This document shows, piece by piece, positions 5,106-40,383 of a DNA stretch of 40,810 nucleotides; within the stretch, counting starts at the first letter, position 1; each line of letters opens with the position of its first letter. This DNA is from a virus (taxonomy: Duplodnaviria; Caudoviricetes). The notes under the pieces are model-generated. The model made no database searches. It saw nothing but the letters and a program-made list of their open reading frames with translations, and was not told the origin of the DNA. A program made the translations under genes and the position numbers. The stretch lies in IMG/VR virus record IMGVR_UViG_3300043672_000020, positions 1 through 40,810 of that record; one strand, given 5' to 3'.

Positions 5106-5114
5106 GAGAGACAG

Positions 5115-11411: not shown

Positions 11412-11427
11412 TCGAGAAGGACGCGCC

Positions 11428-11898: not shown

Positions 11899-11910
11899 GA
11901 GGCACCATCC

Positions 11911-12648: not shown

Positions 12649-12691
12649 CCTATATGTCCCATTTGTTCCTGGTTGATGGAAGGGTGACGGC

Positions 12692-13741: not shown

Positions 13742-13742
13742 C

Positions 13743-15400: not shown

Positions 15401-15401
15401 A

Positions 15402-16916: not shown

Positions 16917-16985
16917 TCCCTCTGCTCTGGCACACTAGGCCGGAGCAGCACAGATGACGCCCCCGAGCGTCTATAGCAGAAGTAG

Positions 16986-18666: not shown

Positions 18667-18857
18667 AGGCCCTCCGTCGCTACCTCACGACGGACGGGAC
18701 GATGGGCGAGGTGCCGATGTGGTATTCGCTCGTCACGGCGTCACGCTACCTCGGTGTGGCGCCCTGGGAACTGGCGAAAATGCCCGCATGGTGGATGAAT
18801 GTCGCGCTCGCGGCCCAGTCGGCGGAAAACGCCGCTAGCAGGAAGAAGGCAGCCTGA
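18663..18857 (+). CDS. tail assembly chaperone, downstream part (gpT-like)
   Basis: ASRYLGVAPWEL motif; -1 frame relative to the upstream chaperone; TGATG coupling to tape measure. Confidence 0.7.
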   Translation: MKALRRYLTTDGTMGEVPMWYSLVTASRYLGVAPWELAKMPAWWMNVALAAQSAENAASRKKAA

Positions 18858-21800: not shown

Positions 21801-22261
21801 CCAGCCTGATCAGCAACCTGATCAGCGGTGTTCAGTCCATGCTCGGCGGCTTGACCAGTGTGATCGGAACGGTCGTCGGCATCCTGACCGGCCCCCTTCC
21901 CGGTTCACCAGCCGAATATGGTCCCCTCTCCGGCCAGGGGTGGACGAAGATCCGGGGTCAGCATTACGTGCAGGACATCGCCTCCGGCATCACCGGGGAA
22001 TCGGGGCTGGTGGCGAGCGCCGCCCGCGACATTGCTGACCTGATGACACTTGACCTGAATTCCGGGGCGGCCTTCAGCGCCATCGCCAACGGGACGTCCA
22101 CCGGAGGCGGGGACGGTGGAGGCATTACGATCAGCGTGGCGCCGGGTGCCATCGTCCTGTCGATCGGCGACGGCGTCACCGCTGGTGACGCCCGGCAGGC
22201 GTTCGACGGTGCGGCGTCGTCGCTGGCGGACGAACTACTGACCGCCATCCGGAGGAGGTAA
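18857..22261 (+). CDS. tape measure protein
   Basis: 1134 aa, Ala-rich and helical, 11-residue W/F periodicity, C-terminal PGSPAEYGPLSGQGW. A 99-nt internal duplication starts at 21092 and 21191. Confidence 0.93.
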   Translation: MPTVAELQVDINAKDDASATIMALDALIKELDSGDVDIDINANTGDAQARLQELLARLRELDRSDPDIDIDVNTGGATAELARLRAELDAMRDETIRVRVNSDEVRRATGNMGDFRTSAMNASRSMRPLTAAVLALGTALIPLGAVAVGGIMALATAFAAAGIGAGLFAAVAITAFGPVKEALKQLASAQEEYNKATTDKERDAALAKTKAIMDGLSPSVRTMVQSVLDFKTAWRAFADQFQPEIFQIAQEGLAGLAGLLPSLAPMVQGAADAFLSLERSVIASLGSPWWQSWMGEIGSVMQPLLEGLGRSIGNIITAFAGLMLAFMPLTLDFVGGMERMTGAFANWAQGLEDSKGFQNFIAYVRENTPLVLGLIASLAGAFVALVKAGAPLGEALVIMATNLFNAMIAFQQAHPQAATFGLALLAVLAVAIKLTGPLLSIGSLVMTIASALLSLASPLMAIAGFFVASSTAAALLVIAFIAIVAALIYAYTHFEAFRNLVNTVAGAIADFAVMVYDAIVAGLGAAASWLSSTFGPAVQAVVDFVVEQFNKIKDWATENSATFQAAWTTIVEFIKFVMVLIGAVIGAGLVAISAVWNAVWPTLSEIIRGVWEAIKGIISGALDIILGMILFWAGVLAGDWSAMGDGIVQIARGMWEAVAGVFTGAFIILQAIATAAGNILMAILGAIWAGIWSAATTAWSLIVTAVSAAWTAITAVVSAAVPIIQNIINAFWNAVFAIFQAAWNLIVAGMSAFWATLTGLVSAAWNGIVALFQAAWAGIVAGMSAFWATLTGLVSAAWNAITALFTGAMNGIQNAVNAFWAAVIAVFQAAWALLVAGLSSFWATLTSLTSAAMNAIQALITAAWNAITNAIQAALAAIQAAVAAAWNAITSLITTAMSAILNAIVAGWNTITNAIQSAMTTILNTIQSGWNAIVRAVQNAIQNVVSAIQNGMSNATQAVQSGIAAMVGIVTGAAGAFFSAGASLISNLISGVQSMLGGLTSVIGTVVGILTGPLPGSPAEYGPLSGQGWTKIRGQHYVQDIASGITGESGLVASAARDIADLMTLDLNSGAAFSAIANGTSTGGGDGGGITISVAPGAIVLSIGDGVTAGDARQAFDGAASSLADELLTAIRRR

Positions 22262-22264
22262 GCA

Positions 22265-25200
22265 GTGGCCACCACGATCACCAGCGGCAACCACGGTGAC
22301 AGCCTTCAGGGCAGCCCGGACAAGCGGCTGGACCTGGCACCGGACGGCACCTTGTGGGCGCTGATCGTCGCGGCCGGAAACCCTGGCACCGCCAAGTTCT
22401 TCCGCAGCAACAACGGTGGCGCGACCTGGACGTACGCCAGTGGTAGCGACATCCCGCTCGGCCAGAACAGCGCCGTCCCCTCGTTTTTCATCGACGCGGA
22501 TGGTTACGCGCACGTCTCGTGGATCAGATGGAACTCCGACCCGCAGACGGTCATCTACGCCCGGGGCAAGCCGACCGGCACCGCCACCACCGATCGGGGC
22601 TGGTCCTGGTCCACTCTGACAATCAGCCCGGCCAGTGGGCGTACCGGTGTCGATTCGGATCTGGTGGCGTTCCGGTCCGGCACCGGCTGGGTCGCGTTCG
22701 TGGCGTACGGACTCGGGTCCGGCAACGGCACCCAGGTGGCTCAGGTGGCCATCACCGCCAGCGGCGCGCTGTCCGTCACCGCCACCACCATGGGACCGAG
22801 TACGGGCCTGGCGCAATGGCAGTTCGGTTCGATCGAGTTCAACCACACAGGCGACGGGAAGACGGCTGCCGCCCTGCCTCACCTCTACCTCTGCACGGCC
22901 ATCCAGGGCACCAGCGCCGCCGTGCGGGTCCAGCGGGCGCTCTACTCCGGTGGTACCTGGACCTGGCAGTCTCCGGTCACGGCGGCCACCGGGGACGTCG
23001 TCCAGACCACCATGTGCACGGTGTGGGACGGCGCGCTGCTGATGACGGCGGTCGCCCTGACCAGCGCCACCATTCTCGTGTCGGAATGGGACGGCGCGGC
23101 CGGATCGGTCACCGCCCGCAACCCACCGGCCGCACCCGGCGGCACCGGCACCGTACTGGGCCTGAGCCTGGCCGTGGACCCGGCCACCGACGACGTCTAC
23201 CTGGCCTACTACGACGCGACCGACGGCGACATCCGCTGGTCCAAGTTCACCCGCGCCTCCACCACCTGGTCAGCCTGGGCGGTAGCCGTCACCCAGACCC
23301 CGCCCGGCGGTGACGGCAAGGTGTCACTGGTGCGGCATCCCAGCCGCGACAGCGTGGACATGATCTTCGCGCAGGGATCCGGCTCCACCTGGACGATCTT
23401 CTCGCAGCAGTTGGTGGCGCTGGTCCGTACGCCGACCGCACCGACCCTCATCAGCCCGGCCAACGGGGCGGCACTGGACCTGGCGGCCGGAGCGACGTTC
23501 ACGTGGACCTACAACCCGGTCAGCCCGGGAGACACCCAGCAGGCGTGGGCTTTTCAGCGCGTCCAGGGCGTCACCACTGAATACTGGAACGCCAGCAGCC
23601 AATCCTGGTCGGCCACGATCATCTGGAACACCACGATCGGGGCCACACCGACCAGCGCGGTGTTCGCGGCGGGGAAGTGGACGACGGCCCTCACGTACAC
23701 GTGGACGGTCCGCACCCGCTCCAGCACCGGCGCCGATTCAGCGTTCGCCACGGCCCGGACCGTGGTCGCCACCACGGCGCCGGTCGCTGTCGTGACCGCA
23801 CCGAGCGGTCTGACGTTCGCCGATTCCAGCCCGAACGTGGTCTGGACGTACACCTGCCTGGACGCGCAGCGGGATTACCGGATCCGGATCATCGCCGAGC
23901 AGGCCGGGATCGACCCGGACGTGACCACACCCGTCTGGGACTCCGGCGTGGTGTCCTCCTCGATCGGCCGGTTCGCCCGGGTCGGCATCAGCCTCACCAA
24001 CGGGGCGGCCTACCGGGCGTATGTGAAAGTCACCAGCAGCGCCGCCGTTTCGTCGGCGTGGGTCTACAGCCAGTTCATCATCAGCATCGTTCCCCCGAAC
24101 GGTCCCCTGGTGGAGGCGATCGACCAGATCCACTACGGCACGGACGTTCCCCGGGTCCGGCTGGACCTGCTGGCCCGCTCGTCACTGCTGACCGCCGCTC
24201 AGGACGTCGGTTCCGGTGGCTGGGAGAATGACACGAACACCACGATCCTCCAGCAACTGGCGGACACCACCAACCAGTTACTGGCCGGGCTGAAACTGAC
24301 CAGCGTGGCGGGCGGGCTGATGGGAGTGCGGACGGTGGTCGGTGATCCCCCGCTCGCGCCGTACGGCCAGCCGCAGCCTCCCGGCCCACTGTCCTTCCCC
24401 GTCGTGGCCGGGATCGTCTATACCCTGGTGGGAAGTTTCAAGGCGGCAGCCACCAGCCGGACCGCTCGCGCCCGGCTGCGCTGGTACGACGAGGATGACG
24501 GCACGGGTGTGCTGATCTCGGAGTCCGTCGGCGATGCGGTGATCATCACCTCTGGTGCTTACGCGCAGGCCACGCTGACCGCGACGGCGCCCGTGGGTGC
24601 CGTCCTGGCGCGCGTGGTGTTCGAGGTGCTCGGGCCGACGGCGGCCAGTGAGATCTTCTACCTGGCGCAGATGTCGTTCGCCCCCGGCCGGTCCACCGCC
24701 TACCAGCCGGGTGGGTACTCGGCGACCCAGACGCTGCGGGTGGAACGCTCGGACGATGACGGGCTGACCTGGACGGAGGTGCTCAGCCGGATCCGGCCGT
24801 CCCTCGCGCAGCAGGCCATCGCCACCGACCGGTCCATGCCGTTCGGCACGGACGTGCAGTACCGTGCGTACACGGACGTCGACCCCGGCCTTGGTGCGGT
24901 GTTCACCTCGGGGATCAGCCCGATCGCCACCATCAACCTGGACGCGGAACGGTGGGCCATCCGTGACCTGACCGAGGATGACGCGGAAATCTACGCCTAC
25001 GTGGTCGGGCATCGCCGCTCCGATGACGAATCGTCCAGCGTGCACCGCCCTGCTGGCCGGGAGTTTCCGATCGTGGACACGGAAGGGCAGCAGGCCGCTG
25101 TCGGGATGCTGTCCATTTTCGTTCCGGTCGCTGACATCGACAGCGCTCTGCTGATCCTGCGCCGGAGCGCGCCGATGATCGTCCAGGGCCCGACCGGCAT

Positions 25201-25300
25201 GCTGTTCCTGGCTCGCCTGCTGCGCCGGGACTACAAGGTCGAAGCGTCCCGGCATCGGATCATCGACGTCGATTATGTTGATGTTATGGAGGCGCAGTAA
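22265..25300 (+). CDS. large minor tail protein
   Basis: Follows tape measure; propeller-like N-terminal region with an Asp-box-like SNNGGATW, FN3-like PTAPTLISP...FTW, a CBM-like segment and a distal-tail-like C-terminus. Confidence 0.8.
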   Translation: MATTITSGNHGDSLQGSPDKRLDLAPDGTLWALIVAAGNPGTAKFFRSNNGGATWTYASGSDIPLGQNSAVPSFFIDADGYAHVSWIRWNSDPQTVIYARGKPTGTATTDRGWSWSTLTISPASGRTGVDSDLVAFRSGTGWVAFVAYGLGSGNGTQVAQVAITASGALSVTATTMGPSTGLAQWQFGSIEFNHTGDGKTAAALPHLYLCTAIQGTSAAVRVQRALYSGGTWTWQSPVTAATGDVVQTTMCTVWDGALLMTAVALTSATILVSEWDGAAGSVTARNPPAAPGGTGTVLGLSLAVDPATDDVYLAYYDATDGDIRWSKFTRASTTWSAWAVAVTQTPPGGDGKVSLVRHPSRDSVDMIFAQGSGSTWTIFSQQLVALVRTPTAPTLISPANGAALDLAAGATFTWTYNPVSPGDTQQAWAFQRVQGVTTEYWNASSQSWSATIIWNTTIGATPTSAVFAAGKWTTALTYTWTVRTRSSTGADSAFATARTVVATTAPVAVVTAPSGLTFADSSPNVVWTYTCLDAQRDYRIRIIAEQAGIDPDVTTPVWDSGVVSSSIGRFARVGISLTNGAAYRAYVKVTSSAAVSSAWVYSQFIISIVPPNGPLVEAIDQIHYGTDVPRVRLDLLARSSLLTAAQDVGSGGWENDTNTTILQQLADTTNQLLAGLKLTSVAGGLMGVRTVVGDPPLAPYGQPQPPGPLSFPVVAGIVYTLVGSFKAAATSRTARARLRWYDEDDGTGVLISESVGDAVIITSGAYAQATLTATAPVGAVLARVVFEVLGPTAASEIFYLAQMSFAPGRSTAYQPGGYSATQTLRVERSDDDGLTWTEVLSRIRPSLAQQAIATDRSMPFGTDVQYRAYTDVDPGLGAVFTSGISPIATINLDAERWAIRDLTEDDAEIYAYVVGHRRSDDESSSVHRPAGREFPIVDTEGQQAAVGMLSIFVPVADIDSALLILRRSAPMIVQGPTGMLFLARLLRRDYKVEASRHRIIDVDYVDVMEAQ

Positions 25301-25302
25301 CC

Positions 25303-26397
25303 GTGTGGGCAACGACACCGGCCTTCTCGGCCGCCCTCCTGGAATCGTCGCGCCAGTGGGCGACCCGGATGGAGGTCCTGTACTCCAACGAGATCGTCAT
25401 GTCGCTGAATACGATGGTCTCTGGATATGTCGGGATCGACGATGTCGCTGTCCGCCGTGAATTGCACGCCTCGTTCGTTGACGCGGATGGCGTGCTGACC
25501 CCGGTCCAGGCTACCGATCTGCTGACTCCGAAAGGTACGGAAGTACGTGTCTACCGGGGGCTTTGGGTAGGAACGGATTACGAATGGGTTCCGATGGGGG
25601 TTTTCGGCGTGGTGGAGCCTGAAGTGCGGGCACACAGCGACGGCACGATCGTGGAATTGAAGGGTTTCGACCGGGTAGACAAGTTGCGGGCACTGGAATT
25701 CACCGACCCGTGGGTCGTTCCTGACGGCACGAACTTCGCCACGGCGATCGGCGACATCGTTACGTCCCGGATGGCCGGTGTCCCCGTACGGCTCACGCCG
25801 ACGGCGTACACGACCCCGGCCATTACGTTCGACCGGTTGACGTCACCATGGGAAGCGATCAAAAGCCTGGTCGCATCCTCTGGACTCATCGCCTATTTCG
25901 ATCAACTGGGCACCTTCGTGGTTGAACCGGCGGCTGGCGTGCAGACCGGCGTCACCTACGGCGTCGGCGAACGCTCGCTGCTGATGACCAGCAGGCGGCA
26001 GTTTCTGCCTACCGACAAGGTGTATTCGGGGGTCATCGTCCGTGGCGAGCACCCGGACAAGACGCCGGTCCGAGTGGAGAAGTGGGACGTCGATCCGCGC
26101 TCTCCCACGTACTCCGACGGGCCTTTCGGGCGGCGTCCGTACGGAATCTACAGCCAGGTCGTCATCACCACACCTCAGGCTCAGGCGCTCGCCGATGAAG
26201 CGTTCCTCCGGGTGACGAAAATGAAGCAGGAGTGCGAGATCACCACTCGTGGACATCCCGGCCATGACGTCGGCGACATCATCACCGTGGTCGACCCGCG
26301 CTCGCGCACCAACGGGGACTATCAGGTCCGGACGGCGACCATCCCGTTGAAGAACGAGCAGGGTGCCCACACTCGCTTGCGCTGCAAGGAGGTTTAG
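25303..26397 (+). CDS. minor tail / baseplate hub protein
   Basis: LLTPKGTEVRVYRG...EWVPMGVF, D.DPRSPTY..GPFGRRP motifs of actinophage minor tail proteins. Confidence 0.82.
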   Translation: MWATTPAFSAALLESSRQWATRMEVLYSNEIVMSLNTMVSGYVGIDDVAVRRELHASFVDADGVLTPVQATDLLTPKGTEVRVYRGLWVGTDYEWVPMGVFGVVEPEVRAHSDGTIVELKGFDRVDKLRALEFTDPWVVPDGTNFATAIGDIVTSRMAGVPVRLTPTAYTTPAITFDRLTSPWEAIKSLVASSGLIAYFDQLGTFVVEPAAGVQTGVTYGVGERSLLMTSRRQFLPTDKVYSGVIVRGEHPDKTPVRVEKWDVDPRSPTYSDGPFGRRPYGIYSQVVITTPQAQALADEAFLRVTKMKQECEITTRGHPGHDVGDIITVVDPRSRTNGDYQVRTATIPLKNEQGAHTRLRCKEV

Positions 26398-26500
26398 CCT
26401 TCACCGGACTCGGTAGGCCCTCCTTACGTAGCACTGCAAGCAGGGGGTCCACCGCAACGCTAACGTAGTGTCGAGGGCATCACTAACGTAGGGAAACAGC

Positions 26501-27235
26501 GTGGAACGTGTAACGGACATCGCCAACCTCGCCGATCAGATGACGAGCGGCGGCCCCGTCGCCACGCTACGCATCGCCATCATCACCGCAGTGCAGGCGA
26601 GCGTGGGACGCAGAGTGCAGACCAACGCTACGGACACTGCGTGGATCCCCCGCTCCGAGGACACAACGTTAGCGGTCGGCGATCGAGTGTGGCTGCTCCA
26701 ACAGGGCGCCACGTTCGTTGTGGGCGGCCGACTCTCGGGTGAGCCGGGGGCCGTACCGCTGGGTGCGGTGATGCCGTTCGCGGGAGCCACGGCACCGGAC
26801 GGCTGGCTGGCGTGCGACGGGGCGGCAGTGTCCAGGACCACGTACGCCGGTCTGTTCGCGGTGATGGGCACCGGTTACGGTGTCGGCGACGGGAGCACCA
26901 CGTTCAACCTCCCGGACCTGCGGGAGCGGGTGCCGGTCGGCACGGGACCTGGCCGGGCCCGTGCCGCCACCGGCGGGGCTGCCACGGTAACGCTGTCCAC
27001 GGCGAATCTTCCGGCTCACGATCACAGTTCGGCCGGTAACCACGCTCACGGCCTGAGTAACATCGGTGGGGTGTTCGTGACCGCTGGCGGTGCGGTGGCG
27101 GCCCTGGCCAGCACGGCGGCCACCTGGGTCACCGATGCCGGTGGCACGCACACCCACTCCTCGGTGGGATCCGGTACGGCACATGAGAATATGATGCCCT
27201 TCCAGGTTTTGCTTTACTGCGTGCGCGCACTGTGA
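26501..27235 (+). CDS. tail fibre protein with phage tail collar domain
   Basis: PLGAVMPFAGATAPDGWLACDGAAVSRTTYAGLF...GDGSTTFNLPDLR, HxH motifs and HENMMPF ending. Confidence 0.9.
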   Translation: MERVTDIANLADQMTSGGPVATLRIAIITAVQASVGRRVQTNATDTAWIPRSEDTTLAVGDRVWLLQQGATFVVGGRLSGEPGAVPLGAVMPFAGATAPDGWLACDGAAVSRTTYAGLFAVMGTGYGVGDGSTTFNLPDLRERVPVGTGPGRARAATGGAATVTLSTANLPAHDHSSAGNHAHGLSNIGGVFVTAGGAVAALASTAATWVTDAGGTHTHSSVGSGTAHENMMPFQVLLYCVRAL

Positions 27236-27657
27236 CGAAGTTCCGGCGGCGGCTGCCGTCCATGGTCGGGCAGAACCCTCTGGAGATCGGTCTGGCCGTA
27301 TGGTCTGTCGCGGCGATCATCAACGCGATAACAGGTTCGGCACCGTCCGGCGCCCTGCGAGCGCTCCCCGATATGCTGGAGACCGTCTGGGTGATCCTGA
27401 TGGGGATCGCCGCCATCACCGTAGCCATCGGCCTGGTCGTCAACAGATTCGCCGTCATCGCCAGTGGAATGTATTTGTTCGCAACGATCCTCGTGGCTTA
27501 CTCCATTGCTATTGTGAGTGCCAGTGGCTGGCAGCGCGGGGGCGCTATCGCCGGGTTCCTCGGCATCATCGGCATCGTCTGCTTCCTTCGTGGATGGTGG
27601 CTCAAGGAGCAGGAAGCCGCGCTGATCAAGGAGATCGAGCGCAAGGATGCCCCATGA
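27232..27657 (+). CDS. membrane protein (about 4 TM), lysis-cassette associated
   Basis: Four hydrophobic stretches; coupled to neighbours upstream of the endolysin. Confidence 0.75.
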   Translation: MTKFRRRLPSMVGQNPLEIGLAVWSVAAIINAITGSAPSGALRALPDMLETVWVILMGIAAITVAIGLVVNRFAVIASGMYLFATILVAYSIAIVSASGWQRGGAIAGFLGIIGIVCFLRGWWLKEQEAALIKEIERKDAP

Positions 27658-28085
27658 GCCCCACCTCAGATCCTGTGATCGTCGGAATCTTGGCCCTCCT
27701 GTCATCAGGTGGGGCCAAGATTCTTTATGACGCCGGTAAGCAGTGGCGTGCCGCTCCACCTCGTGCGGTCCGCTCGCAGGCGGTCGTGGATGCGAATATC
27801 GCCACGGTCGCGCGAGCCCGGGACGAGTTGGAGGAGGATAACGTCCGGCTTCGTGCGATGCTGGTGGAGGCGAATGCCCAGCGAGCGGAGGCGGAACGGT
27901 TGCATACCGAGGAGCGCACCCGCTGGCTGTTCGACCAGGCCAGGCTGCGCAGCGACGTGGAACGGCTGGAGTCGCGGCTGCGCACGGAGCAGGCCGAGGC
28001 CGCCGCCCGTTATGATGCGCTCCTGGAGCAGGTGCACCAGTTGCGCCTGCGAGCCAACACCCAAGGGAATCCTGATGGTCACTAA
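27654..28085 (+). CDS. membrane-anchored coiled-coil protein, lysis-cassette associated
   Basis: ATGA overlap; N-terminal hydrophobic segment (VIVGILALLSSGG) then heptad-rich helix; 3' part of track ORF 27300..28085. Confidence 0.72.
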   Translation: MSPTSDPVIVGILALLSSGGAKILYDAGKQWRAAPPRAVRSQAVVDANIATVARARDELEEDNVRLRAMLVEANAQRAEAERLHTEERTRWLFDQARLRSDVERLESRLRTEQAEAAARYDALLEQVHQLRLRANTQGNPDGH

Positions 28086-29016
28086 GTACCCAGCCGCCCA
28101 CTGGCGCCCGCTGGCTCCGACGCAGGGCCAGGGCAGGATGGCGTCCCACGACCTGATCATTCTGCACACGGCAGTGGGCTACCTCTCCAGTACTGATGTG
28201 ATGTTCAAGCGGAACGGCTGGACCGGAACCGAATCCCATTTCGGCGTCGGCGGCATCTGGGGCGGCGACAGGGCGGCCGGGCTGGATGGTGTGGTCTACC
28301 AGTGGCAGGACACCGAATTCCGCGCGGACGCCAACCTGGACGCCAACCCACGGGCCCTGTCGATCGAGACCGCCGACAACGCTCCGCAGGCGGCGCGGGA
28401 CATCGCGGCCTGGACACCGAAACAGGTCGACGCCATCGTGAAACTGGTGGCCTGGTGCTGCCAGACCTACGGCATTCCACCGATCCTGATCCCGGATTCG
28501 AAGCCGGGCCGACGTGGAATCGGTTACCACCGGCAGGGAATCAGCCCCTGGAAGGTTTCCGGCGGCGAAACCTGGTCCACGTCACCGGGTAAGGAATGCC
28601 CCGGCGACCGGCGGATCGAGCAGATCAAAACCCTTGTGGTGCCCCGTGTCCAGGCACTGCTGAACCCGAAACCTGTCCCAGTGGAGGACATTGTGGCAAC
28701 GAAAGCCGAACTGGAAGCGCTGTTCGTCAACCTGTTCAAGAAGACCCCACTCGTGCCGAACAAGGTCCTGGATGCCGGGGCCGTGCAGGGCGCGGACTGG
28801 ACCCTGGCCGGGGTGCTCGCTGCCGCCGACCAGAAACTGGACCTGACCCGGCGCGAGCAGATGGCGCAGTCCCAGGTCCAGCAGGGGCAGTCGGAAGCCC
28901 TGTCGACCCTGATCGCGTCCCTGTCCGGCAAGGCGTCCGCCGCCGACGTCCGGCGATTGGAACTGAAGGTCGACACCCTGATCGCCCTGCTGACGCCGAA
29001 ACCACCGGCCACCTGA
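28075..29016 (+). CDS. endolysin, N-acetylmuramoyl-L-alanine amidase (Amidase_2 type)
   Basis: IILHTAVG, SHFGV, SIETAD, GIGYHR, KECPG zinc-amidase motifs; start moved to ATG 28075. Confidence 0.9.
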   Translation: MVTKYPAAHWRPLAPTQGQGRMASHDLIILHTAVGYLSSTDVMFKRNGWTGTESHFGVGGIWGGDRAAGLDGVVYQWQDTEFRADANLDANPRALSIETADNAPQAARDIAAWTPKQVDAIVKLVAWCCQTYGIPPILIPDSKPGRRGIGYHRQGISPWKVSGGETWSTSPGKECPGDRRIEQIKTLVVPRVQALLNPKPVPVEDIVATKAELEALFVNLFKKTPLVPNKVLDAGAVQGADWTLAGVLAAADQKLDLTRREQMAQSQVQQGQSEALSTLIASLSGKASAADVRRLELKVDTLIALLTPKPPAT

Positions 29017-29072
29017 ACCCCCGCTCGGGGCGCCCCGGGCGGGTCCGCATAACCCTAAGGAGAAGCATCCTC

Positions 29073-29402
29073 ATGAGGATCTTCGGACGCGAACCAACGG
29101 TAGTCATCCAGACACTGGCAACGCTGCTGTCGTTGCTGGTCGCCTTCGGCTTCGACGGCCTGTCCGCCGAGCAGGCGGCGCTGATCATCGCCGCCATCTA
29201 CGCTGGGCTGGGTGCTCTCAACGCGCTCGCGGTCCGGCCGATCGCCCCGGCGGCGTTCATCGGTGCCGTCGGTGCCGTGGCGGCGCTCGCGGCCTCGTAC
29301 GGGCTGGACTTCACTCAGGAGCAGGTCGGGTCCGTTTCCGCCGCCCTCGTCTCCGTCATCGTGCTGCTGACCAGGTCGCAGGTCACCCCGACCAAAGCCT
29401 AG
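29073..29402 (+). CDS. holin
   Basis: MRIFGREP...RSQVTP internally duplicated hydrophobic protein typical of actinophage holins; AAGGAG RBS; follows endolysin. Confidence 0.8.
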   Translation: MRIFGREPTVVIQTLATLLSLLVAFGFDGLSAEQAALIIAAIYAGLGALNALAVRPIAPAAFIGAVGAVAALAASYGLDFTQEQVGSVSAALVSVIVLLTRSQVTPTKA

Positions 29403-29418
29403 TCACCCACCACGCCAG

Positions 29419-29449
29419 AGCCCGGCCAGGTCTTCGGACCGGCCGGGCT
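29419..29449 (+). terminator. hairpin ending the late operon
   Basis: AGCCCGGCC-A-GGTC [TTCG] GACC-GGCCGGGCT: 13 bp with one bulge and a cUUCGg loop; weak U tract. Confidence 0.7.
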
Positions 29450-29455
29450 GCTGCG

Positions 29456-29485
29456 TTGTCAAGTACTTGTCATCTCTGTTATGCT
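29456..29485 (+). promoter_or_regulatory. promoter of the conjugation-like operon with palindromic operator variant
   Basis: TTGTCA (29456-61)-N18-TATGCT (29480-85) with TGn extension; 29456-29473 TTGTCAAGTACTTGTCAT; GGGAGG RBS before ATG 29515. Confidence 0.7.
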
Positions 29486-29514
29486 GTTAACAGACTAACA
29501 ACGGGAGGAAAATC

Positions 29515-29790
29515 ATGAAGTTGCTCATCGCCGCACAGCCCACCATCGACCTGGAGTCGGGGGTGACCTGGATCAAGGGATTCCTGCTGCTCCTGGTCAT
29601 GTGCGCCCTGGTCTACCTGGCCCTGAAGGGCCTGCTCCGGCACGGCCAGAACGGTGACTACTCCAGTGCGATCTCCATGGTCGGCGCCAGCATGATCTGC
29701 CTGGTCCTGGTGGCCATGGCGGGCGGGGTGGCCGTCTTCACCGGCTACGGCAGCGCGGTCCTCGGGGCGATCACCAAGATCCTGTCGTGA
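29515..29790 (+). CDS. small 2-TM protein, pilin/VirB2-like (TcpD-like) by size and position
   Basis: 91 aa, two long hydrophobic helices; first gene of the operon containing the VirB4-like ATPase. Confidence 0.55.
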   Translation: MKLLIAAQPTIDLESGVTWIKGFLLLLVMCALVYLALKGLLRHGQNGDYSSAISMVGASMICLVLVAMAGGVAVFTGYGSAVLGAITKILS

Positions 29791-30479
29791 AGCAGATCGC
29801 CGACGACCCTGGACGGCAGATCCGCAGCCCATACCTCGGGCCGGTGAACATGCGCTTCCCCTTCGACTGGACCCTGTCCGAGATGGGACTGGCGTTCATC
29901 GTGCTGCTGTTCGGCACGGGCCTGCTGGTGTTCGTCATCCCCGCCGGGCTCGCCATCGGACTGGTGGCGCATCGCACCGCCCAGGCCGTCAGCCGGGCGA
30001 TCAACCGGGACCAGCCCCGGACCAACTACCGGATCTTCGTGGGGGCCGTGGCCGTCCTGTGTCTGCTGATCTCGTTCAACCCGATGACCTGGATCAGCCC
30101 CCTGCCCTTCCCGTTCGCCGTCCTGGCCGGGCTCGCACTGCCGATCTACGTGGTCCGCCGCAAGGGCAACTACCTGGACTGGAACCGGCCGTTCGGTTAC
30201 TGGCTGCGCCTGCCGCGTCTGGTGGCCCGTGGGCCGCGCGAACAGGCGGAGGAGGAGATGAACACCGGCCCGCTGATGCTGGGCATGGACCTGGCCGCTG
30301 CTGACCGCTCACGGGGCCTGGAGCCCGTGCTGGTCATCACTTCGGCACCCAAGGGCGGTAAGAGCCCGGTCAAACGGGCGACGCCGGTCCGGCATCAGGC
30401 CCGGCACAAGTTGATCGAGCGCACCGAGAAGGGCTTCCGCGTCGGAGCCACCGAATACCGAGTGGAGTGGACGTTCTGA
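29787..30479 (+). CDS. membrane protein, VirB3/TcpE-like by position
   Basis: YLGP...RFPF N-terminus then multiple TM segments; directly upstream of and coupled to the ATPase. Confidence 0.55.
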   Translation: MKQIADDPGRQIRSPYLGPVNMRFPFDWTLSEMGLAFIVLLFGTGLLVFVIPAGLAIGLVAHRTAQAVSRAINRDQPRTNYRIFVGAVAVLCLLISFNPMTWISPLPFPFAVLAGLALPIYVVRRKGNYLDWNRPFGYWLRLPRLVARGPREQAEEEMNTGPLMLGMDLAAADRSRGLEPVLVITSAPKGGKSPVKRATPVRHQARHKLIERTEKGFRVGATEYRVEWTF

Positions 30480-33145
30480 TGACCAGGAAAAACACCGTGC
30501 GCCCACTGGCTCCCGCAGCGAAATCCATCGTGCGCAATTTTCTCCCGCTGAAGGACGGCACCATCTGGGTCGGCTACCGGCTCGGTCCGGCCCGCTGGGA
30601 CTTCACCGGAGCGGACCCGAAGACGTCCCGGATGAGCCAGGACGCGGACGTTTTCAGCCACCTGACCGGCCGGTTCTACCATGAGCGCGTCTCCACCCGG
30701 CCGCACCCGGTGCAGGCATGGGCGCGGCAACTGGACGCCCGCACACCGCACCCGACACCCGACTTGCACACCTGTGACCTGCTGATGAGCAAGGGTGATC
30801 TACTGCGCGGCCGGTGCGGTTGCGAGACCTGGAACAGTCACCTGGTCCGCCAGCAAGTGGCCATCGCCCATTCCGGGATGGACGACAAGGTCATCTTCCG
30901 GTACTTCACCCTGAACGCCAGCGTGCCCGGCCGGTTCGACCTGCGCAGGCACCTGCTCGCTTACCTGGCCGGGGAGAAGCCGCACTCCACATTGCTTCCC
31001 GTTCTGGAGGAGGAGAAACGGGTCAATGACATCGTCAAGGGGTGGCCGGGCACGCAGCGGATGAACGAATTCGAGCAGGGCTGGCTGCGGGTGCGCTCGC
31101 TGGCGCCCGGAACGCAGCCGGGTGGCATCCAGGTCACCGGCCGGGACGGCTGGGACGAACTGGCCATCCCCGCACTGGAGAACGACACCCGCTGGGTGGA
31201 GACACCGTTCGGCCGGACCGTCACCGTCCGGACGTGGGCGGACGGAAAGCAGGCCACGACTGCCGCCCGGGTGCTGACCGTGGCCCGGCTGGGCGACCTG
31301 CACTACCCGGAGAACGGACTGCCACCGTGGCAGGTGCACGCCGAGTCGGCGGTCGACGCGAGCGGGCACCCGTTCCCGGTGGAATGGAGCATCGTCGGGC
31401 GGCTGCGCTCCGGCGGGGAAATGACCAGTGAAGTGGAACTGGACCTGCGGAAGGCGCAGTACATCGACCGCGACTACCGCAAGCACAGGGAGACGCCGCC
31501 GTCGGCCATCGCGCACGGCATCGCGGTCGCACTGCACACCCGTGACCAGGTCACCACCGGCCAGGCTACTTATGCGGCGCGGTTCCAGGGCCAGGTCAAC
31601 GTGATCATCACCGGCCGGGATCGCTACAACAGCGACGGGATCATGGTCCTGTCGGCGGCCGACGTCGTGGAGGAGCGTTGCGCCTCGTTCGCCCGGATGT
31701 ACTCCGCCGGTGGCCTGCGGATGGACTTCACCGGGGCGGACTGCCAGTCCTACATGCTCCAGTCCACCATCCCCGGTGAACCTTTCGACCGGGTCGGCTA
31801 CCAGCGGCGGCTGTCCCTGCCGTACCTGACGTCCGGGATGCCGAACGTCACCGCGAGCGTCGGCGACGGGCGCGGCCCCTACCTCGGGCATACCCGTGGC
31901 GCCAGCCGCCGCCCGGTCATGCACGACCCTCACTACGCCACGGAAGGGCTGAAGACCGGCCGGGCGCAGAACATGCACGTGATTATCTCCACACTCGGCG
32001 GTGGTAAGTCCGTGCTCATCGGCTCCATCGCCTACGGCCTGGTCCGCCGGGGCGTCACCACGATCATCAACGACCCGTCCGGTCCACTGGCCGGGCTCTG
32101 CCGCATGCCCGAAATCGCTGCCGTGTCACAGGAAGTGAACCTGCTCAACGGTCGCAAGGGCATCCTGTCCCCGCCCGGTCTGATCGCCAACCCGCACAAG
32201 GACGATTACCCGGAACCGGGTGACTGGTCCGACGCGATCGAGCAGGCCCGCTCGGAACGACGTGACCTGGTGGTGGACATGGCCCTGCAATGCCTACCGG
32301 AAGATCTGGTGGCCGAGCACGGCCCGAACGCCGAGCAGACCCGCCGGGTCCTGCGGCAGGCCGCCCGCCGATACAGCGAGCGCTCCCGCTGGGAGATGTC
32401 CTCCAGCCTGTGGGATCTGGTGGAGAGTCTGCTCAGCCTGGACAGCGAGCACGCGGACGCGGTCGCGGGCGCTCTGGTGGATGCCAGCACCGCCCCGTTG
32501 CTGCGGCTGCTGTTCCCCCCGCGCGGGGCCACGGTAGAGCCCGGCCAGTACAGCAAGACCCTCACGGTCATCACCACGCCGGGCATCGTCCGGGCCGTGG
32601 ACGGCACGCCCCGCCGTGACTGGAACCCGATGGAGATCGGCGCGGACGCCGTGCTGCGGCTGACGACGCTCTACACGAACCGGCTGATCTACAGCAAGCC
32701 ACGCGAGCAGCGGGCGGCGGTGTTCTTCGACGAAGCGGAGTCCATGACGGACTTCGGTCCAGGCCGGTCCATGCTGTCCCGGCTCGGCCGTGACCACTCC
32801 AAGTGGAACCTGGCCGTTTATCTGGCCGTGAAAAGCATCAACCCGCAGATGCTTTCGGGTGAACTGAAGAACTTCATCGCTTCCGTGTTCGTGGGCCGGA
32901 TGGCTTCGCGGGAACCGGCGCTGGAGGCTCTGCACATGCTCGGCCTGACTGATGAGCGGTACATCGACGTGCTGCTGAATCTGTCCACCCACGTGCCCGG
33001 CGAATGGGTCCACCGTGACGTGGACGGCAACGTCGGCGGCATGCGTGTGGACGTCGACTACCACCCGGTCCTGAAGGCCGCGCTGCTGACCGACCCGACA
33101 CCCGAAGGTTCATCCGACTGGGCCCTGAACGAGGAGATGCTGTGA
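30479..33145 (+). CDS. virB4: VirB4/TcpF/ConE-family conjugative ATPase
   Basis: ~888 aa; C-terminal P-loop ISTLGGGKS, INDPSG, Walker B AVFFDEAE, GRDHSKWN, FVGRM, and terminal GEWVHRDVDGNVGGMRVD. Confidence 0.82.
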   Translation: MTRKNTVRPLAPAAKSIVRNFLPLKDGTIWVGYRLGPARWDFTGADPKTSRMSQDADVFSHLTGRFYHERVSTRPHPVQAWARQLDARTPHPTPDLHTCDLLMSKGDLLRGRCGCETWNSHLVRQQVAIAHSGMDDKVIFRYFTLNASVPGRFDLRRHLLAYLAGEKPHSTLLPVLEEEKRVNDIVKGWPGTQRMNEFEQGWLRVRSLAPGTQPGGIQVTGRDGWDELAIPALENDTRWVETPFGRTVTVRTWADGKQATTAARVLTVARLGDLHYPENGLPPWQVHAESAVDASGHPFPVEWSIVGRLRSGGEMTSEVELDLRKAQYIDRDYRKHRETPPSAIAHGIAVALHTRDQVTTGQATYAARFQGQVNVIITGRDRYNSDGIMVLSAADVVEERCASFARMYSAGGLRMDFTGADCQSYMLQSTIPGEPFDRVGYQRRLSLPYLTSGMPNVTASVGDGRGPYLGHTRGASRRPVMHDPHYATEGLKTGRAQNMHVIISTLGGGKSVLIGSIAYGLVRRGVTTIINDPSGPLAGLCRMPEIAAVSQEVNLLNGRKGILSPPGLIANPHKDDYPEPGDWSDAIEQARSERRDLVVDMALQCLPEDLVAEHGPNAEQTRRVLRQAARRYSERSRWEMSSSLWDLVESLLSLDSEHADAVAGALVDASTAPLLRLLFPPRGATVEPGQYSKTLTVITTPGIVRAVDGTPRRDWNPMEIGADAVLRLTTLYTNRLIYSKPREQRAAVFFDEAESMTDFGPGRSMLSRLGRDHSKWNLAVYLAVKSINPQMLSGELKNFIASVFVGRMASREPALEALHMLGLTDERYIDVLLNLSTHVPGEWVHRDVDGNVGGMRVDVDYHPVLKAALLTDPTPEGSSDWALNEEML

Positions 33146-34965
33146 GTAAACCCGAGTTCGGCAGGATCAAACACCCGGTGTTCGCCCGTCACGAGAGCAC
33201 GAAAAGCCGGTCGCGGCGCAGGAATTCGATACTGCGGTGGACGTTCGTCTTCTGGCTGGCGGTTCTGGTGGTGTGGCTGTGCGTGGCCAGCGCCCCGAAC
33301 GCGCACGCCGCTGACGCCGGGATCGACCTGCCGGGGATCGAGGTCTGCCCGAAGGAGGCACCGTTCGCGGCCACGCCGGAGACGGGCCTGGCCGGGCTCC
33401 TGGGTGAGCGGCCGATCAGGATCACGACGGACAACTCACCCGAGCACATCTGGTCCACGGGTGGTTTCGCTGGGCTGCGCTCGCACACCTACGACCTGGG
33501 ATGCGCCATCGACCCCACGTCATGGATGCGGATCACGAACGCGTCAGCCGACTCGAAGATCGTCAATGGGATCACGGCGTTCGGTGACGGCCTGGTGTCG
33601 CTCACCGATTCGGTGGACCGGCGGGCCTGGCAGGCGGGATGGATCACCTCGTTCCTGGAGGATTTCGCCCGCCGGGCCACGGGCATCATCAACACCACCA
33701 TCGTCATCCCGTTCGTGGGCCTGGGCCTGATCATTGCCTGCATCATCCTGCTGTACCGGGCGCACGACGGTGACATCCATTCCGCCGCGACGAATGTCGG
33801 GTGGGTGTTCGTGGTGGCCACGGTCACCGGGTTCCTGCTGCTGTCACCGCTGTTCGCGTCCAAGGTCGGGCAGGTGGCCGGTGGCACACTGGTGGCGGCG
33901 CTGAACAACGGGGCCAACCCTTCCGACGCCGCGACCAACCAGGTCGTGAAAAACGTTCAGTACCAGGGGTGGCTGCGACGCAACTTCGGCAGCATCAACT
34001 CACCGGCCGGGGTGAAGTACGGACCGGATCTGCTGGCCAGCACCCGCGTCTCCTGGGCCGAACTGGATGCGATCACCGCACTCGCACCCAAGGACCAGGC
34101 GAAAGCACGCAAGGAACTGACCGAGAAGAAAGCCAGGCAGTTCAAGGACATCGCCGCGAAGGTGAAGGACGATGACCCGACGGCCTACCGGTACCTGACG
34201 GGGGAGGAACTCAGTTCCACGGAAACCCTGGTGGAGGTGGCTTTTGATTTCGCGGCCTGCTTCTTCCGGCTGGCCGTGGCCATCCTGATGATCACCTGCC
34301 GGATCACCCTGGTCCTGCTGGCGATCTTCTGGCTGGTGCTGACCCCGCTGATCATCCTGCCGCGCGTCGGGCGTCACTCCGGCCAGGAGATGGGGGTCGG
34401 CCTGTTCAACAACGCTGTCCAGGCGACCGGCTACGTGCTGGCCGCCGCCGTCGGATCCTGGCTGTTCGGGATCTACCTCCAGGCGTGCATGGCCCCGGGC
34501 ATGAGCCTGTGGTGGTCGCTGCTGCTGCTGGTCCTCGGGTCCGGCATCGCCTGGACCGTGATCCGCCCGGACCGGAAGTTCCTGTCCATCGTCAGCCTGG
34601 GCCGGATCAACGGGTACGGCTACATCGGGAGGCTCCTGAAGGGCCTGGCCCTGTCCTACATCGGTGGCCGGGTGGCCGGTGCCGCCGTCGCGAACGCTGT
34701 GGACGACCGGGAGCAGGAAACACCGGAGCGGATGTCCGAGAACGTTCCACCGGAACCGGAAGTCATCTACGCCAACATCTTCAACCCGGAAGATCCGTTC
34801 ATTGTGGACGCGGAAGCCCTGCCATCAGGGATGCCTGCCTACGAGCGCCCCACCGGCCAGCCGGACCCACCACCGGACCGGGCCGAAAGCCCGTACGAGA
34901 ACTGGTGGGAACGAGGCTGGGAACCGTACGAGCCGTCCGACGACACCGAAGGAGCACGCACATGA
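33142..34965 (+). CDS. VirB6/TcpH-like polytopic membrane protein
   Basis: Signal-like N-terminus (AHA), two TM clusters separated by an extracytoplasmic loop (YQGWLRRNFGS), acidic Pro-rich tail; follows VirB4. Confidence 0.7.
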   Translation: MSKPEFGRIKHPVFARHESTKSRSRRRNSILRWTFVFWLAVLVVWLCVASAPNAHAADAGIDLPGIEVCPKEAPFAATPETGLAGLLGERPIRITTDNSPEHIWSTGGFAGLRSHTYDLGCAIDPTSWMRITNASADSKIVNGITAFGDGLVSLTDSVDRRAWQAGWITSFLEDFARRATGIINTTIVIPFVGLGLIIACIILLYRAHDGDIHSAATNVGWVFVVATVTGFLLLSPLFASKVGQVAGGTLVAALNNGANPSDAATNQVVKNVQYQGWLRRNFGSINSPAGVKYGPDLLASTRVSWAELDAITALAPKDQAKARKELTEKKARQFKDIAAKVKDDDPTAYRYLTGEELSSTETLVEVAFDFAACFFRLAVAILMITCRITLVLLAIFWLVLTPLIILPRVGRHSGQEMGVGLFNNAVQATGYVLAAAVGSWLFGIYLQACMAPGMSLWWSLLLLVLGSGIAWTVIRPDRKFLSIVSLGRINGYGYIGRLLKGLALSYIGGRVAGAAVANAVDDREQETPERMSENVPPEPEVIYANIFNPEDPFIVDAEALPSGMPAYERPTGQPDPPPDRAESPYENWWERGWEPYEPSDDTEGART

Positions 34966-35123
34966 TGACCGAGAAGGAAGCCCACGAGGAAGTCCCCTGC
35001 CCTGGGCCGGGATGCACCAGCCGGACCGGAAGCGCCCGTCGGGGCTGCACCATCTGTGCCGGTGACGGCACCATCGAACGCTGGGTGTGGGCCAGCCTGA
35101 TCGCCGGGGAGGTGCTGCTGTGA
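34962..35123 (+). CDS. small zinc-finger protein
   Basis: ATGA overlap and AAGGAG RBS; CPGPGC...CTICAGDG. Confidence 0.65.
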   Translation: MMTEKEAHEEVPCPGPGCTSRTGSARRGCTICAGDGTIERWVWASLIAGEVLL

Positions 35124-35611
35124 TCGCGTGGCTGTTCGACAGCCCACAGCGGCTGAAGACGGTCGCGGCCGGTACCGGCGTGCTGATCGTGATCATGTTC
35201 ATCGCGTTCACCTTCAGCCGGATGCAGCACCTGCCGACCGTCCAGGCGGGTCCGGCGCCGACAGCGGAATCCACCGCCACCGGCCTCCTGCCGCCGTCTC
35301 CCGCCCCGGAGGAGGGCTCACCCCTGCCGGAGTACGGCCCGAGCGCCCCGATCGCCCTGGAGGCCGTCCAGGCATTCCTCCAGGGTGACCACGCCAAGTT
35401 CGCCCGGCTCGGCCAGCCGGAAGCCGTGGAGTCCGTGAACGAGGCGCCACAGCCACCGCCCGGCCAGCAGATCACTGGCGACGTGGAGACTCTGCTGGAC
35501 GGCCCGACCCGGCAGAAGGTGTCCGTGCCGACCACCGACGGGAACCTGGTGCTGGACATGGTCGTCGTGGACGGGGCCTGGAAAGTCATGAGCATCGAGT
35601 ACGACCGGTGA
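35120..35611 (+). CDS. bitopic membrane protein, VirB8/TcpC-like
   Basis: Single TM, Pro-rich linker, compact alpha/beta domain ending MVVVDGAWKVMSI (NTF2-like ending); GTGA overlap. Confidence 0.55.
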   Translation: MIAWLFDSPQRLKTVAAGTGVLIVIMFIAFTFSRMQHLPTVQAGPAPTAESTATGLLPPSPAPEEGSPLPEYGPSAPIALEAVQAFLQGDHAKFARLGQPEAVESVNEAPQPPPGQQITGDVETLLDGPTRQKVSVPTTDGNLVLDMVVVDGAWKVMSIEYDR

Positions 35612-35709
35612 CCCGTCGCGAGCGACGGATCCTGATCGCCCTGGCCATCGTCTACGGATCCGTGGCAGGTTTCCTGCTCGCCGCCCTGGCCTGGACGGTG
35701 ACGCGGTGA
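35608..35709 (+). CDS. 33-aa single-TM peptide (below ORF-track cutoff)
   Basis: MTRRERRILIALAIVYGSVAGFLLAALAWTVTR; GTGA overlaps at both ends. Confidence 0.6.
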   Translation: MTRRERRILIALAIVYGSVAGFLLAALAWTVTR

Positions 35710-35873
35710 AGGATCCGAACTGGAGGTGCTGGATCTGCATGAGGCCCTTGCGCTGGTGGCAGTTTCGTTTGGATCTGTGCCGTGAATGCGCCCAGCACCG
35801 TAACGATCGCAACTGGCGGCTGCATCACTACACGTCCGGAATCGACCAGCCCGCAGACACCTGGAGAGGCTAG
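35706..35873 (+). CDS. 55-aa CxxC...CxxC protein (below ORF-track cutoff)
   Basis: MKDPNWRCWICMRPLRWWQFRLDLCRECAQ...; coupled to both neighbours (GTGA, TAGTG). Confidence 0.55.
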   Translation: MKDPNWRCWICMRPLRWWQFRLDLCRECAQHRNDRNWRLHHYTSGIDQPADTWRG

Positions 35874-36808
35874 TGAAGAAGACCCTGCTGGTGCTTGCCC
35901 CCCTGGCCGGGCTTTTGACCGTTCCGGTGCTGATGCTGACGTTCCTGTCCGGCCCGCCGAAGATCCCGGGTGCCAGTCTGACCGGTGGGGAGACTGCGAA
36001 CTGCTCCGTTCCCGCGCCGACCGGTGACCTGGGGGCGTCGGCGGTCGCGGCGCACGCCTACCGGGCCGGATTCCGAGGGCAGGACGTCAACATCGCTGTG
36101 GCGGTCGCGCGAGCGGAGTCCGGCTGGGACGCCAAGGCCACTAACCGGAACGGCAACGGCTCGGTGGATTACGGGCTGATCCAGATCAACTCGGTCCATG
36201 AGGCGATCCTGGCGACCGGCAACTGGGCCGATCCCGGAGACAATATGGCCATGGCCTTCACTGTCTGGTCGGACGCCGGGAAGTCGTGGGGTCCGTGGGT
36301 GACCTACTGGTCCGGATCCTACCGACAGTACTTGACGAATGTTGACGTCCATCCGACGTGTGTGCAGCCGGTCGTCGGCACGTGTGCGGCCCCGAAAGAC
36401 CTGAGCCAGTACCAGAACGGGCTGATCCCGGCCAGTGCACTCTGCACCCTCTGGGCCGACCGTAGGCACCGTCTACGCTCGGACGCGGCCACCTCGTTCG
36501 ATGCGCTCGCGCGGGCCTACCAGCAGCACTTCGGTTCCAAGCCGTGCATCACCGACTCCTACCGGTCGCTGGCCGCACAGATCGACGTGGCCCGGCGCAA
36601 GCCCGGACTGGCCGCCCGGCCCGGCACCTCCAACCACGGCTGGGGCCTGGCACTCGACCTGGGCTGCGGGTTGCAGACAGCAGGCAGTGATCAGGATGTG
36701 TGGATGCACCAGAACGCGGAGCGGTTCGGCTGGCATCACCCCGGATGGGCTGAACCATCCGGATCGAAACCTGAAAGTTGGCACTGGGAGATGGTGGGAG
36801 CACGATGA
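35873..36808 (+). CDS. bifunctional cell-wall hydrolase: lytic transglycosylase + M15 (VanY-like) peptidase
   Basis: N-terminal signal/anchor; AVARAESG, DYGLIQIN, WGPW (lysozyme-like); DSYRS...PGTSNHGWGLALD...ESWHWE (M15 zinc peptidase). Confidence 0.88.
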   Translation: MKKTLLVLAPLAGLLTVPVLMLTFLSGPPKIPGASLTGGETANCSVPAPTGDLGASAVAAHAYRAGFRGQDVNIAVAVARAESGWDAKATNRNGNGSVDYGLIQINSVHEAILATGNWADPGDNMAMAFTVWSDAGKSWGPWVTYWSGSYRQYLTNVDVHPTCVQPVVGTCAAPKDLSQYQNGLIPASALCTLWADRRHRLRSDAATSFDALARAYQQHFGSKPCITDSYRSLAAQIDVARRKPGLAARPGTSNHGWGLALDLGCGLQTAGSDQDVWMHQNAERFGWHHPGWAEPSGSKPESWHWEMVGAR

Positions 36809-37074
36809 GCGCGATTGATGACGTCGCCAACGCGGCGGGCAGGAAACTACGGGCACAGGCAGCGCTTGATGCCGCGAACGATGAACTGACGGACGCGCTG
36901 ATAAATCTGCATCGAGAGTGGAAGGGGACGACCCCGAAGTACCGGATCGGCTGGATCGTCCGGGACTTCCTGTCCCGCCACGGGTTCACCCCGTACATGA
37001 TCCGGCGGCTGGCCATCTCTGATGGCAGCGTACGGAACATGCTGGACAAGGGAAAGCCCCCTCACGAATCGTGA
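36805..37074 (+). CDS. small helical protein, possible C-terminal HTH
   Basis: ATGA overlap, GGGAG RBS; last gene of the operon; LAISDGSVRNML resembles a recognition helix. Confidence 0.6.
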   Translation: MSAIDDVANAAGRKLRAQAALDAANDELTDALINLHREWKGTTPKYRIGWIVRDFLSRHGFTPYMIRRLAISDGSVRNMLDKGKPPHES

Positions 37075-37079
37075 GGGGG
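37057..37079. terminator. hairpin at the convergence of + and - operons
   Basis: CCCCCTCACG-AAT-CGTGAGGGGG, perfect 10-bp stem. Confidence 0.6.
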
Positions 37080-40128: not shown

Positions 40129-40383
40129 ATGGCCAAGGCCAGGAAGTACACGGAACAGTTCTCTTTCGTGGGAACGTCAACGGCCTACGATCTGATGGTG
40201 GCGGTCGCCGAGCGGATCGAGATCGACAAGGCGCCGATCGTCCGGACCGCCGTCGATCAGATGTTCGGTCTGGTGGACGGTGAACTGCGCCCGGGAGACA
40301 CCTTCGAGTCGGCCATCCAGCGGATCACCAACCTGCTGGATCCGGTGATCACGGCAACCGAGCCCGAGCAGATCGCCGTCTAA
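40129..40383 (+). CDS. ribbon-helix-helix (CopG/Arc-like) DNA-binding protein
   Basis: Basic N-terminus, alternating strand EQFSFVG, helix YDLMVAVAERIE, helix KAPIVRTAVDQM; GGAGG RBS. Confidence 0.62.
   Translation: MAKARKYTEQFSFVGTSTAYDLMVAVAERIEIDKAPIVRTAVDQMFGLVDGELRPGDTFESAIQRITNLLDPVITATEPEQIAV

Follow-up and report, generated by a model that had tools for sequence, protein, structure and literature searches.

The virus record IMGVR_UViG_3300043672_000020 from IMG/VR, 40,810 nt long with 66% GC and analysed in its entirety (hereafter, the window), combines a tailed-phage virion and lysis gene set (2338..29402, + strand) with a cassette of ten genes, T1 to T10, that includes a VirB4-family ATPase. 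Sequence comparisons indicate that phages carrying this cassette are a real, conserved family, whose cassette resembles the FtsK+VirB4 module of actinomycete plasmids and is neither a canonical conjugative element nor an ICE (integrative and conjugative element), nor that of a demonstrated phage-plasmid. With moderate confidence, we propose that the cassette serves relaxase-free, FtsK-driven transfer of phage double-stranded DNA (dsDNA) between cells. More tentatively, these tailed phages without a lysogeny module may spread both by virions and by genome injection resembling that of a type IV secretion system (T4SS), with an HNH-FtsK fusion protein as a second, terminase-like cutter and motor that would package DNA into the neighbouring cell rather than into a capsid.

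The VirB4 cassette

Ten open reading frames without internal stops lie at 29515-37074 (+ strand) directly after the holin gene, and all nine junctions between them overlap by 1 or 4 nt, as had been described in an earlier annotation made from the letters of the window (the sequence-only reading). Their GC content is 0.668 versus 0.659 in the virion genes. The proposed ten-gene operon holds as a layout, but only T1, T2, T3, T4, T6 and T9 (6/10 genes) form a conserved core. Conservation was assessed in 11 related loci, each with a full VirB4 gene; seven are IMG/VR records and the other four come from further metagenome sources, after removal of three duplicates and two short fragments. There, tblastn placed T2, T3 and T4 in 11/11, T9 in 10 and T6 in 9; the sequence of one locus stops inside T4, and a single T6 was located by position only. 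T5, T7 and T8 are variable inserts among these relatives. Relative G004 has a primase gene between holin and T1 (L027:10900-13311) and three tail-type genes inserted between T6 and T9 (L027:19100 to L028:1492).

The ATPase T3 (30479..33145, +) is 888 aa long from the ATG at 30479 and has intact Walker A and Walker B motifs at residues 504 and 747, in agreement with the sequence-only reading. It matched Pfam AAA_10 above the cut-off (E 2.8e-17), and its AlphaFold (AF2) model (pLDDT 87.8) had R388 TrwK/VirB4 as its top Foldseek match (E 1e-22, TM-score 0.54, ~900 columns). On this model, T3 is predicted to be a full-length VirB4 fold with a C-terminal RecA-like ATPase. An assignment to HerA, one of the groupings that the sequence-only reading had named as fatal to its interpretation, was rejected, as HerA ranked well behind VirB4 (E 4.5e-9, TM-score 0.24). 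When the VirB4 profile was run against PDB sequences, it returned weak TrwB Walker-A matches only. Against TcpF (NCBIfam NF052333), T3 reached 43 bits (E 1.3e-11) where the cut-off is 1100. The Tcp/ICEBs1 systems had been suggested as the model for this operon; that suggestion was not borne out, the closest system being the actinomycete plasmid module described below.

The remaining core proteins can be assigned with varying strength. T2 (29787..30479, +), a 230-aa membrane protein, is likely a TcpE/PrgI (VirB3-like) protein, based on an Atlas lead (0.85) to a TcpE cluster and a weak N-terminal match to its plasmid counterpart (probability 32%). T4 (33142..34965, +; 607 aa), polytopic with seven transmembrane (TM) segments in a TM scan, had no Pfam match and aligned by hhalign at 99.9% with the gene following VirB4 on a Streptomyces linear plasmid, while its counterpart on a Nonomuraea plasmid matched TrbL/VirB6 weakly (E 0.01); by position and topology it is putatively VirB6-like. 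T6 (35120..35611, +; 163 aa) is a bitopic protein with an NTF2 fold in its AF2 model, as the sequence-only reading had anticipated. Its top VIA rows were DotI, TraM and IcmL-like proteins (Z 10.1-10.6, rmsd 2.3-2.5, 92-93 residues), and generic NTF2 proteins, at Z 9.6, are tied with these VirB8-type rows; Foldseek gave no match below E 0.001 for the same model, and hhalign linked T6 at 95% to a counterpart on the Streptomyces linear plasmid. We therefore regard T6 as putatively VirB8-like. T9 (35873..36808, +; 311 aa) combines a lytic transglycosylase and an M15 peptidase domain, both noted earlier and both above Pfam cut-offs (SLT_3, 1e-15; VanY, 2e-10), and is predicted from these domains to be a VirB1-like wall hydrolase. 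T1 (29515..29790, +) has the size and topology ascribed to it (91 aa, two predicted TM helices in a TM scan) and aligns in 11/11 relatives (12-row alignment). No profile match to a plasmid counterpart and no tie to pilins was obtained, so that of its description as a pilin-size protein only size and TM content stand, and T1 is putatively pilin- or VirB2-like by size and position.

The other genes are small. T5 (34962..35123, +) is a Cys-rich frame of 53 aa found in 1/11 relatives; T7 (33 aa, one TM) and T8 (55 aa), together at 35608..35873 (+), occur in 0/11 and 1/11, respectively. T10 (36805..37074, +; 89 aa) belongs to no family, occurs in 5/11 relatives and, as a guess, could be a regulator.

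Inheritance of the cassette within a phage lineage

The cassette is an inherited part of the phage lineage and not a chimera or an inserted integrative and conjugative element (ICE). It adjoins tail or lysis genes in all 11 related loci, and the lineage relatives are 70-81 kb in size, four of them 96-100% complete, with terminal repeats in one (G006). Terminase was found in 5/5 relatives searched. The cassette is under purifying selection: compared with two close relatives, dN/dS was 0.15-0.38 for T3, T4, T6 and T9 and 0.47-0.58 for T1 and T2, with 0.11-0.17 for two tail genes at similar dS. In a FastTree phylogeny of VirB4, which carried a long-branch warning, 56 phage-type rows fell on one side of the branch leading to four plasmid rows. 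VirB4 distances were in part congruent with those of terminase (rho 0.70, p 0.05) and primase (rho 0.49, p 0.003).

An assembly chimera, an inserted ICE or a decaying relic is accordingly extremely unlikely, even though the window is one unclosed metagenomic record. A single contig from sequencing run X1 (depth 13) spans 24000-40759, differs from the window in 2 letters and runs without a joint through 29400-29520 and 37070, the places where the sequence-only reading had asked for the assembly to be verified. As X1 is possibly the source sample of the record, independent evidence against a chimera comes from synteny in the related loci instead. Neither an att-like repeat nor an integrase was found, and the possibility of an independent ICE bounded by att sites, raised beforehand, was rejected on these grounds.

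Close homologues of this VirB4 come from metagenomes. There are 44 near-full-length homologues (40-79% identity, metagenome sources only), seven on contigs of 74-83 kb, and 43 of the 44 entered the alignment of close homologues (A1; P0005 was left out). VirB4 had no match among 50,697 GenBank phages, no cultured phage among its matches and no homologue among NCBI-sourced proteins; none was found in GTDB genomes by a pattern-based search that misses distant copies. Two distant VirB4 homologues (P0045, P0046) and one HNH-FtsK homologue (P0054) carry LAGLIDADG-type domains, which are probably inteins. Outside the clade, VirB4 was present in 0/35 capsid relatives, which are mostly fragments; the three complete ones are ~44-kb phages with 58-59% capsid identity. 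A further relative, G022 (capsid 67%, 68% complete), continues for 17 kb past the tail hub without a cassette and is likely a sister lineage lacking it.

The cassette also shares its promoter type with the rest of the phage. The promoter reported ahead of the operon was confirmed: its sigma-70-type sequence, TTGTCA-18-TATGCT, has its first base exactly at 29456, and a pattern scan places it (29456..29485, +) in a repeated double-TTG[A/T]CA type with a second copy at 40058. A promoter scan of the window gave 3 promoter-like sites versus 1.9 in shuffles, so that the weight of this promoter comes from its conservation. Copies of the type number two in the window, 18 in G006 and 12 in G003, compared with ~0 in shuffles, and in G006, G003 and G002 the type precedes both T1 and the HNH-FtsK operon; the motif is absent from G004 and G007. 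By its sequence, then, the promoter before T1 is of the phage's own repeated type.

Hairpins flank the cassette on both sides. The left one (29418..29450, +), after the holin gene, was seen in the sequence and is absent from the terminator-scan list; the right one (37057..37079, no strand assigned), supported by the terminator scan and synteny, lies between the cassette and converging phage genes. In L008 (8779-16126) and G003, the cassette is inverted in place from hairpin to hairpin when compared with the window and L001, with collinear flanks, the inverted block of L008 beginning at a position equal to 29436 of the window. No recombinase was found with the inverted cassette in either relative.

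The DNA motor and a proposed route of transfer

The sequence-only reading had reported no relaxase, coupling protein or integrase, and none was found in the whole record. It had also suggested a phage-conjugative hybrid with missing parts outside the window; an FtsK-type translocase is indeed present in relatives, but a relaxase was not found, even in near-complete ones. These searches covered the five related records of at least 60 kb (G002, G003, G004, G006 and G007), where positive controls gave signal. TrwC, Relaxase and Rep_trans gave hits in 0/5 records (six frames), no other MOB family occurred among 109 proteins of three records, and the VirD4-type coupling protein (PF02534) was found in 0/5, an FtsK/SpoIIIE ATPase being present instead. 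A canonical conjugative element was rejected in view of the missing relaxase and VirD4.

According to Pfam, the ATPase of all five records is a fusion of HNH and FtsK/SpoIIIE domains. Across IMG/VR, full-length HNH-FtsK occurs in five records, which are exactly these five VirB4 records. Its HNH and Walker residues are invariant or nearly so in the alignment, its 22 homologues come from metagenome sources only, and the fusion appears to be a new domain pairing within the databases searched. The HNH domain was present in 6/6 phage-type FtsKs and 0/3 plasmid FtsKs scanned. Top plasmid matches include FtsKs lying 4-6 kb from the VirB4 genes of the plasmid modules (e.g., on NZ_AP018367, NZ_CP029542, CP003952 and NZ_CP050694). 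None of the alignments listed begins before residue 177, so that all lie beyond the HNH part. For the window itself, a second X1 contig (28,762 nt, depth 11.2) is collinear with the HNH-FtsK gene of G002 and meets the window end through a 51-nt internal match; the window's phage therefore likely has HNH-FtsK, on its unassembled arm.

The closest known counterpart, at ~27% identity, is an FtsK+VirB4 module carried by actinomycete plasmids, which are often linear; examples are those of Streptomyces sp. 891-h (NZ_CP050694), Nonomuraea (NZ_CP107854), Rhodococcus pNSL1 and R. equi pVAPN. Cassette and module share the order small TM protein, TcpE-like protein, VirB4, polytopic protein, NTF2 protein and wall hydrolase, with homologous T3, T4, T6 and FtsK and often no relaxase. 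The VirB4, polytopic and NTF2 genes stand in the plasmid-module order, and a cognate FtsK lies in the same replicon in 5/5 of the larger relatives and, going by the X1 contig, probably also in the window genome. Unlike the plasmid module, the phage cassette sits in a tailed-phage genome, its FtsK is unlinked and fused to HNH, its hydrolase is SLT+M15 instead of C40 or M23, and it does not adjoin ParA. The Streptomyces, Nonomuraea and Rhodococcus plasmid VirB4 modules lie beside an FtsK. Of 97 plasmids with a VirB4 match, 61 were typed non-mobilizable (no relaxase detected), as were 11/11 with a T4 match. The three module plasmids whose topology was taken from well-typed records are all linear; pVAPN is circular in PLSDB and linear according to papers.

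A conserved cassette together with a matching DNA pump in near-complete relatives suggests that the genome likely passes from cell to cell in addition to travelling in particles. In the proposed route, the standard phage promoter would drive the cassette and HNH-FtsK during extrachromosomal replication of the genome. T9 would open the wall, T1, T2, T4 and T6 would build a contact pore powered by VirB4, and FtsK would pump dsDNA as TraB does. The fused HNH might cut circular or concatemeric phage DNA, supplying a free end such as linear plasmids possess from the outset, and the recipient cell would start a new infection. For linear plasmids, the model is an end-first transfer (PMC13492992).

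Several observations weigh against such a transfer route. HNH-FtsK is far from the cassette and unlinked to it, and weak membrane segments were found in 3/4 HNH-FtsKs scanned. TraB translocases are defined by a C-terminal winged helix and a clt repeat array. In the alignment and Pfam results, HNH-FtsK has no TraB-like winged helix and ends soon after the ATPase domain, and no clt-like array was seen among the largest repeats near three HNH-FtsK genes. FtsK-like genes also occur in 220 phage records that gave no VirB4 match, chiefly those of Bacillus and Mycobacterium phages. VirB4 distances correlate weakly with those of HNH-FtsK (rho 0.43, p 0.13, five taxa) and of the tail hub (rho 0.34, p 0.15), and no maintenance system that would give a long-lived donor was found. 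On the plasmid side, it speaks for the route that pVAPN and pNSL1, which carry the module, are described as self-transmissible through a TraB dsDNA translocase (PMC6852188, PMC5434932). Against it, PMC6852188 calls this transfer independent of relaxase and T4SS, so that, as far as that source goes, even on plasmids the VirB4 cassette has no established part in DNA transfer. MOB-suite, for its part, assigns a MOBF relaxase to pVAPN1571.

Some of these points would suit a channel repurposed for protein export or envelope remodelling (killing or priming neighbours, or exclusion), with HNH-FtsK serving phage DNA metabolism. The missing relaxase and VirD4, the unlinked FtsK, the FtsK-like genes of phages without VirB4 and the self-contained cassette, inverted in place in two relatives, all fit this explanation. 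We nevertheless rate it rather unlikely: the phage FtsK is closest to plasmid FtsKs that flank the module, it co-occurs with the cassette in 5/5 records, and no conserved effector or immunity gene lies inside the cassette, whose small inserts vary.

The host is probably a soil actinomycete. Among named genomes, Streptomyces contigs come closest in the capsid (63-65%), and 18/20 endolysin matches are Streptomyces phages. These matches would agree with DNA being moved only inside one mycelium, across hyphal cross-walls, like the spread functions of plasmids. Upstream of HNH-FtsK, four relatives (L017:561-1292, L036:692-1534, L029:611-1246 and L127:4320-5216) encode a protein with 3-4 TM segments and a soluble C-terminal part, at the place of DUF2637/Spd in plasmids, and one family member matched DUF2637 weakly (E 0.017). 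Profile comparison gave no match between this family and the plasmid DUF2637 protein, and its identification as DUF2637/Spd was not confirmed. Moreover, the module is common in Rhodococcus plasmids (62/97 of those with a VirB4 match), and Rhodococcus has no true mycelium; an exported wall hydrolase and a pilin-sized protein also fit an outside contact better. Movement restricted to one mycelium is hence unlikely.

The closest published precedent for a phage that also conjugates is ZL12 (pZL12), a Streptomyces plasmid-phage whose annotated replicon unites virion genes with a transfer gene of the FtsK type and for which conjugation is reported (PMC3583192, PMC4487206). It differs in having ParA/ParB and an integrase and no VirB4 match, whereas the phage family has the VirB4 cassette and no detected ParA/ParB or integrase. 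Following this precedent, the family could be ordinary conjugative phage-plasmids that persist as a stable plasmid prophage, have partition and immunity genes diverged beyond detection and transfer from lysogens only, and a conserved ribbon-helix-helix (RHH)-like gene (40129..40383, +; Atlas lead, alignment and synteny) precedes the primase-polymerase/helicase gene in most relatives, as in plasmid replicons. The primase-polymerase/D5 helicase present in relatives does not discriminate a phage-plasmid. We consider this explanation very unlikely: searches with working controls detected ParA, ParB or a tyrosine or serine recombinase in 0/5 records, PHROGs showed no repressor family among 57 G006 proteins, VirB4 is missing from the GTDB and NCBI searches described above, and the cassette promoter is shared with up to 17 other phage sites, the RHH-like gene lying behind the same type. 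That the promoter is shared and maintenance genes were not detected instead suggests a cassette expressed as the genome replicates outside the chromosome, and not from a classical lysogen.

Other known systems resemble the proposed route of phage DNA transfer in part. The linear plasmid SLP2 of Streptomyces (also by its annotation) and enterococcal pELF are described in PMC13492992 as having relaxase-free, FtsK-driven transfer with an accessory ATPase, membrane proteins and a hydrolase; these are plasmids without virion genes, and SLP2 was not among the six Streptomyces matches of the plasmid VirB4 search. Tcp (pCW3) and ICEBs1 share a VirB4 of the AAA_10/TcpF neighbourhood, a VirB8-like NTF2 protein, a wall hydrolase and an FtsK-like motor, but the phage family lacks their MOBT relaxase and integrase and falls far short of TcpF. 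In phage-ICE tandems (PMC13651849), conjugation machinery likewise moves phage DNA, but as two separate integrated elements and not as one integrase-less genome with its own promoter. No paper on phages with such a VirB4 cassette was found in the open-access literature.

Other genome features and implications

PHROGs confirmed the terminase (3423-5105), portal, major capsid (9644-10678), tape measure (18857-22261), amidase endolysin and holin (29073-29402) genes, all on the + strand; with Pfam matches as further evidence, the same block also contains tail protein genes. The complete virion gene set claimed by the sequence-only reading is thus present, and with a large terminase, portal, major capsid and tail genes the genome belongs with the Caudoviricetes. 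A head-maturation/MuF-like gene at 6815-8797 encodes 660 aa, exceeding its counterparts in G003, G005 and G006 by ~300 aa; its residues 225-536 match an intein weakly, below the cut-off (E 0.002). Inside the tail block, the protein encoded at 15336-16916 (526 aa) has an N-terminus resembling a signal sequence and contains an Fn3 domain; some relatives have it as well. Upstream of the terminase lie an HNH endonuclease gene (32-760) and a tRNA-Met(CAT) (1086-1159).

Ahead of the RHH-like gene and next to the replication gene, a divergent promoter region with inverted repeats (40022-40383) is a candidate control switch. Two different X1 contigs attach to the AT-rich end of the window (40730-40810), where a repeated or origin-like element may have interrupted the assembly. 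Among the relatives, G002, G003, G004 and G006 share accessory genes, namely a JAB protease by YdjM, a VWA protein, DUF7178 and a helicase (e.g., L017:7926-9244, L018:518-1561 and L020:12668-13531), and G006 has an ArdC-like anti-restriction gene of a type usual in conjugative elements.

Two papers treat movement by virions and movement by conjugation as alternatives (PMC7969092, PMC12282955). A diverse phage lineage that keeps a full virion set together with a VirB4 channel and a motor would break that split. With the six-gene core plus FtsK, what the VirB4 cassette does on linear plasmids of actinomycetes also becomes directly testable. If the proposed transfer holds true, it could account for phage spread in soil despite the poor diffusion of particles there, and it would be a bacterial-virus counterpart of the cell-to-cell movement of plant viruses, bypassing receptors and dry soil.

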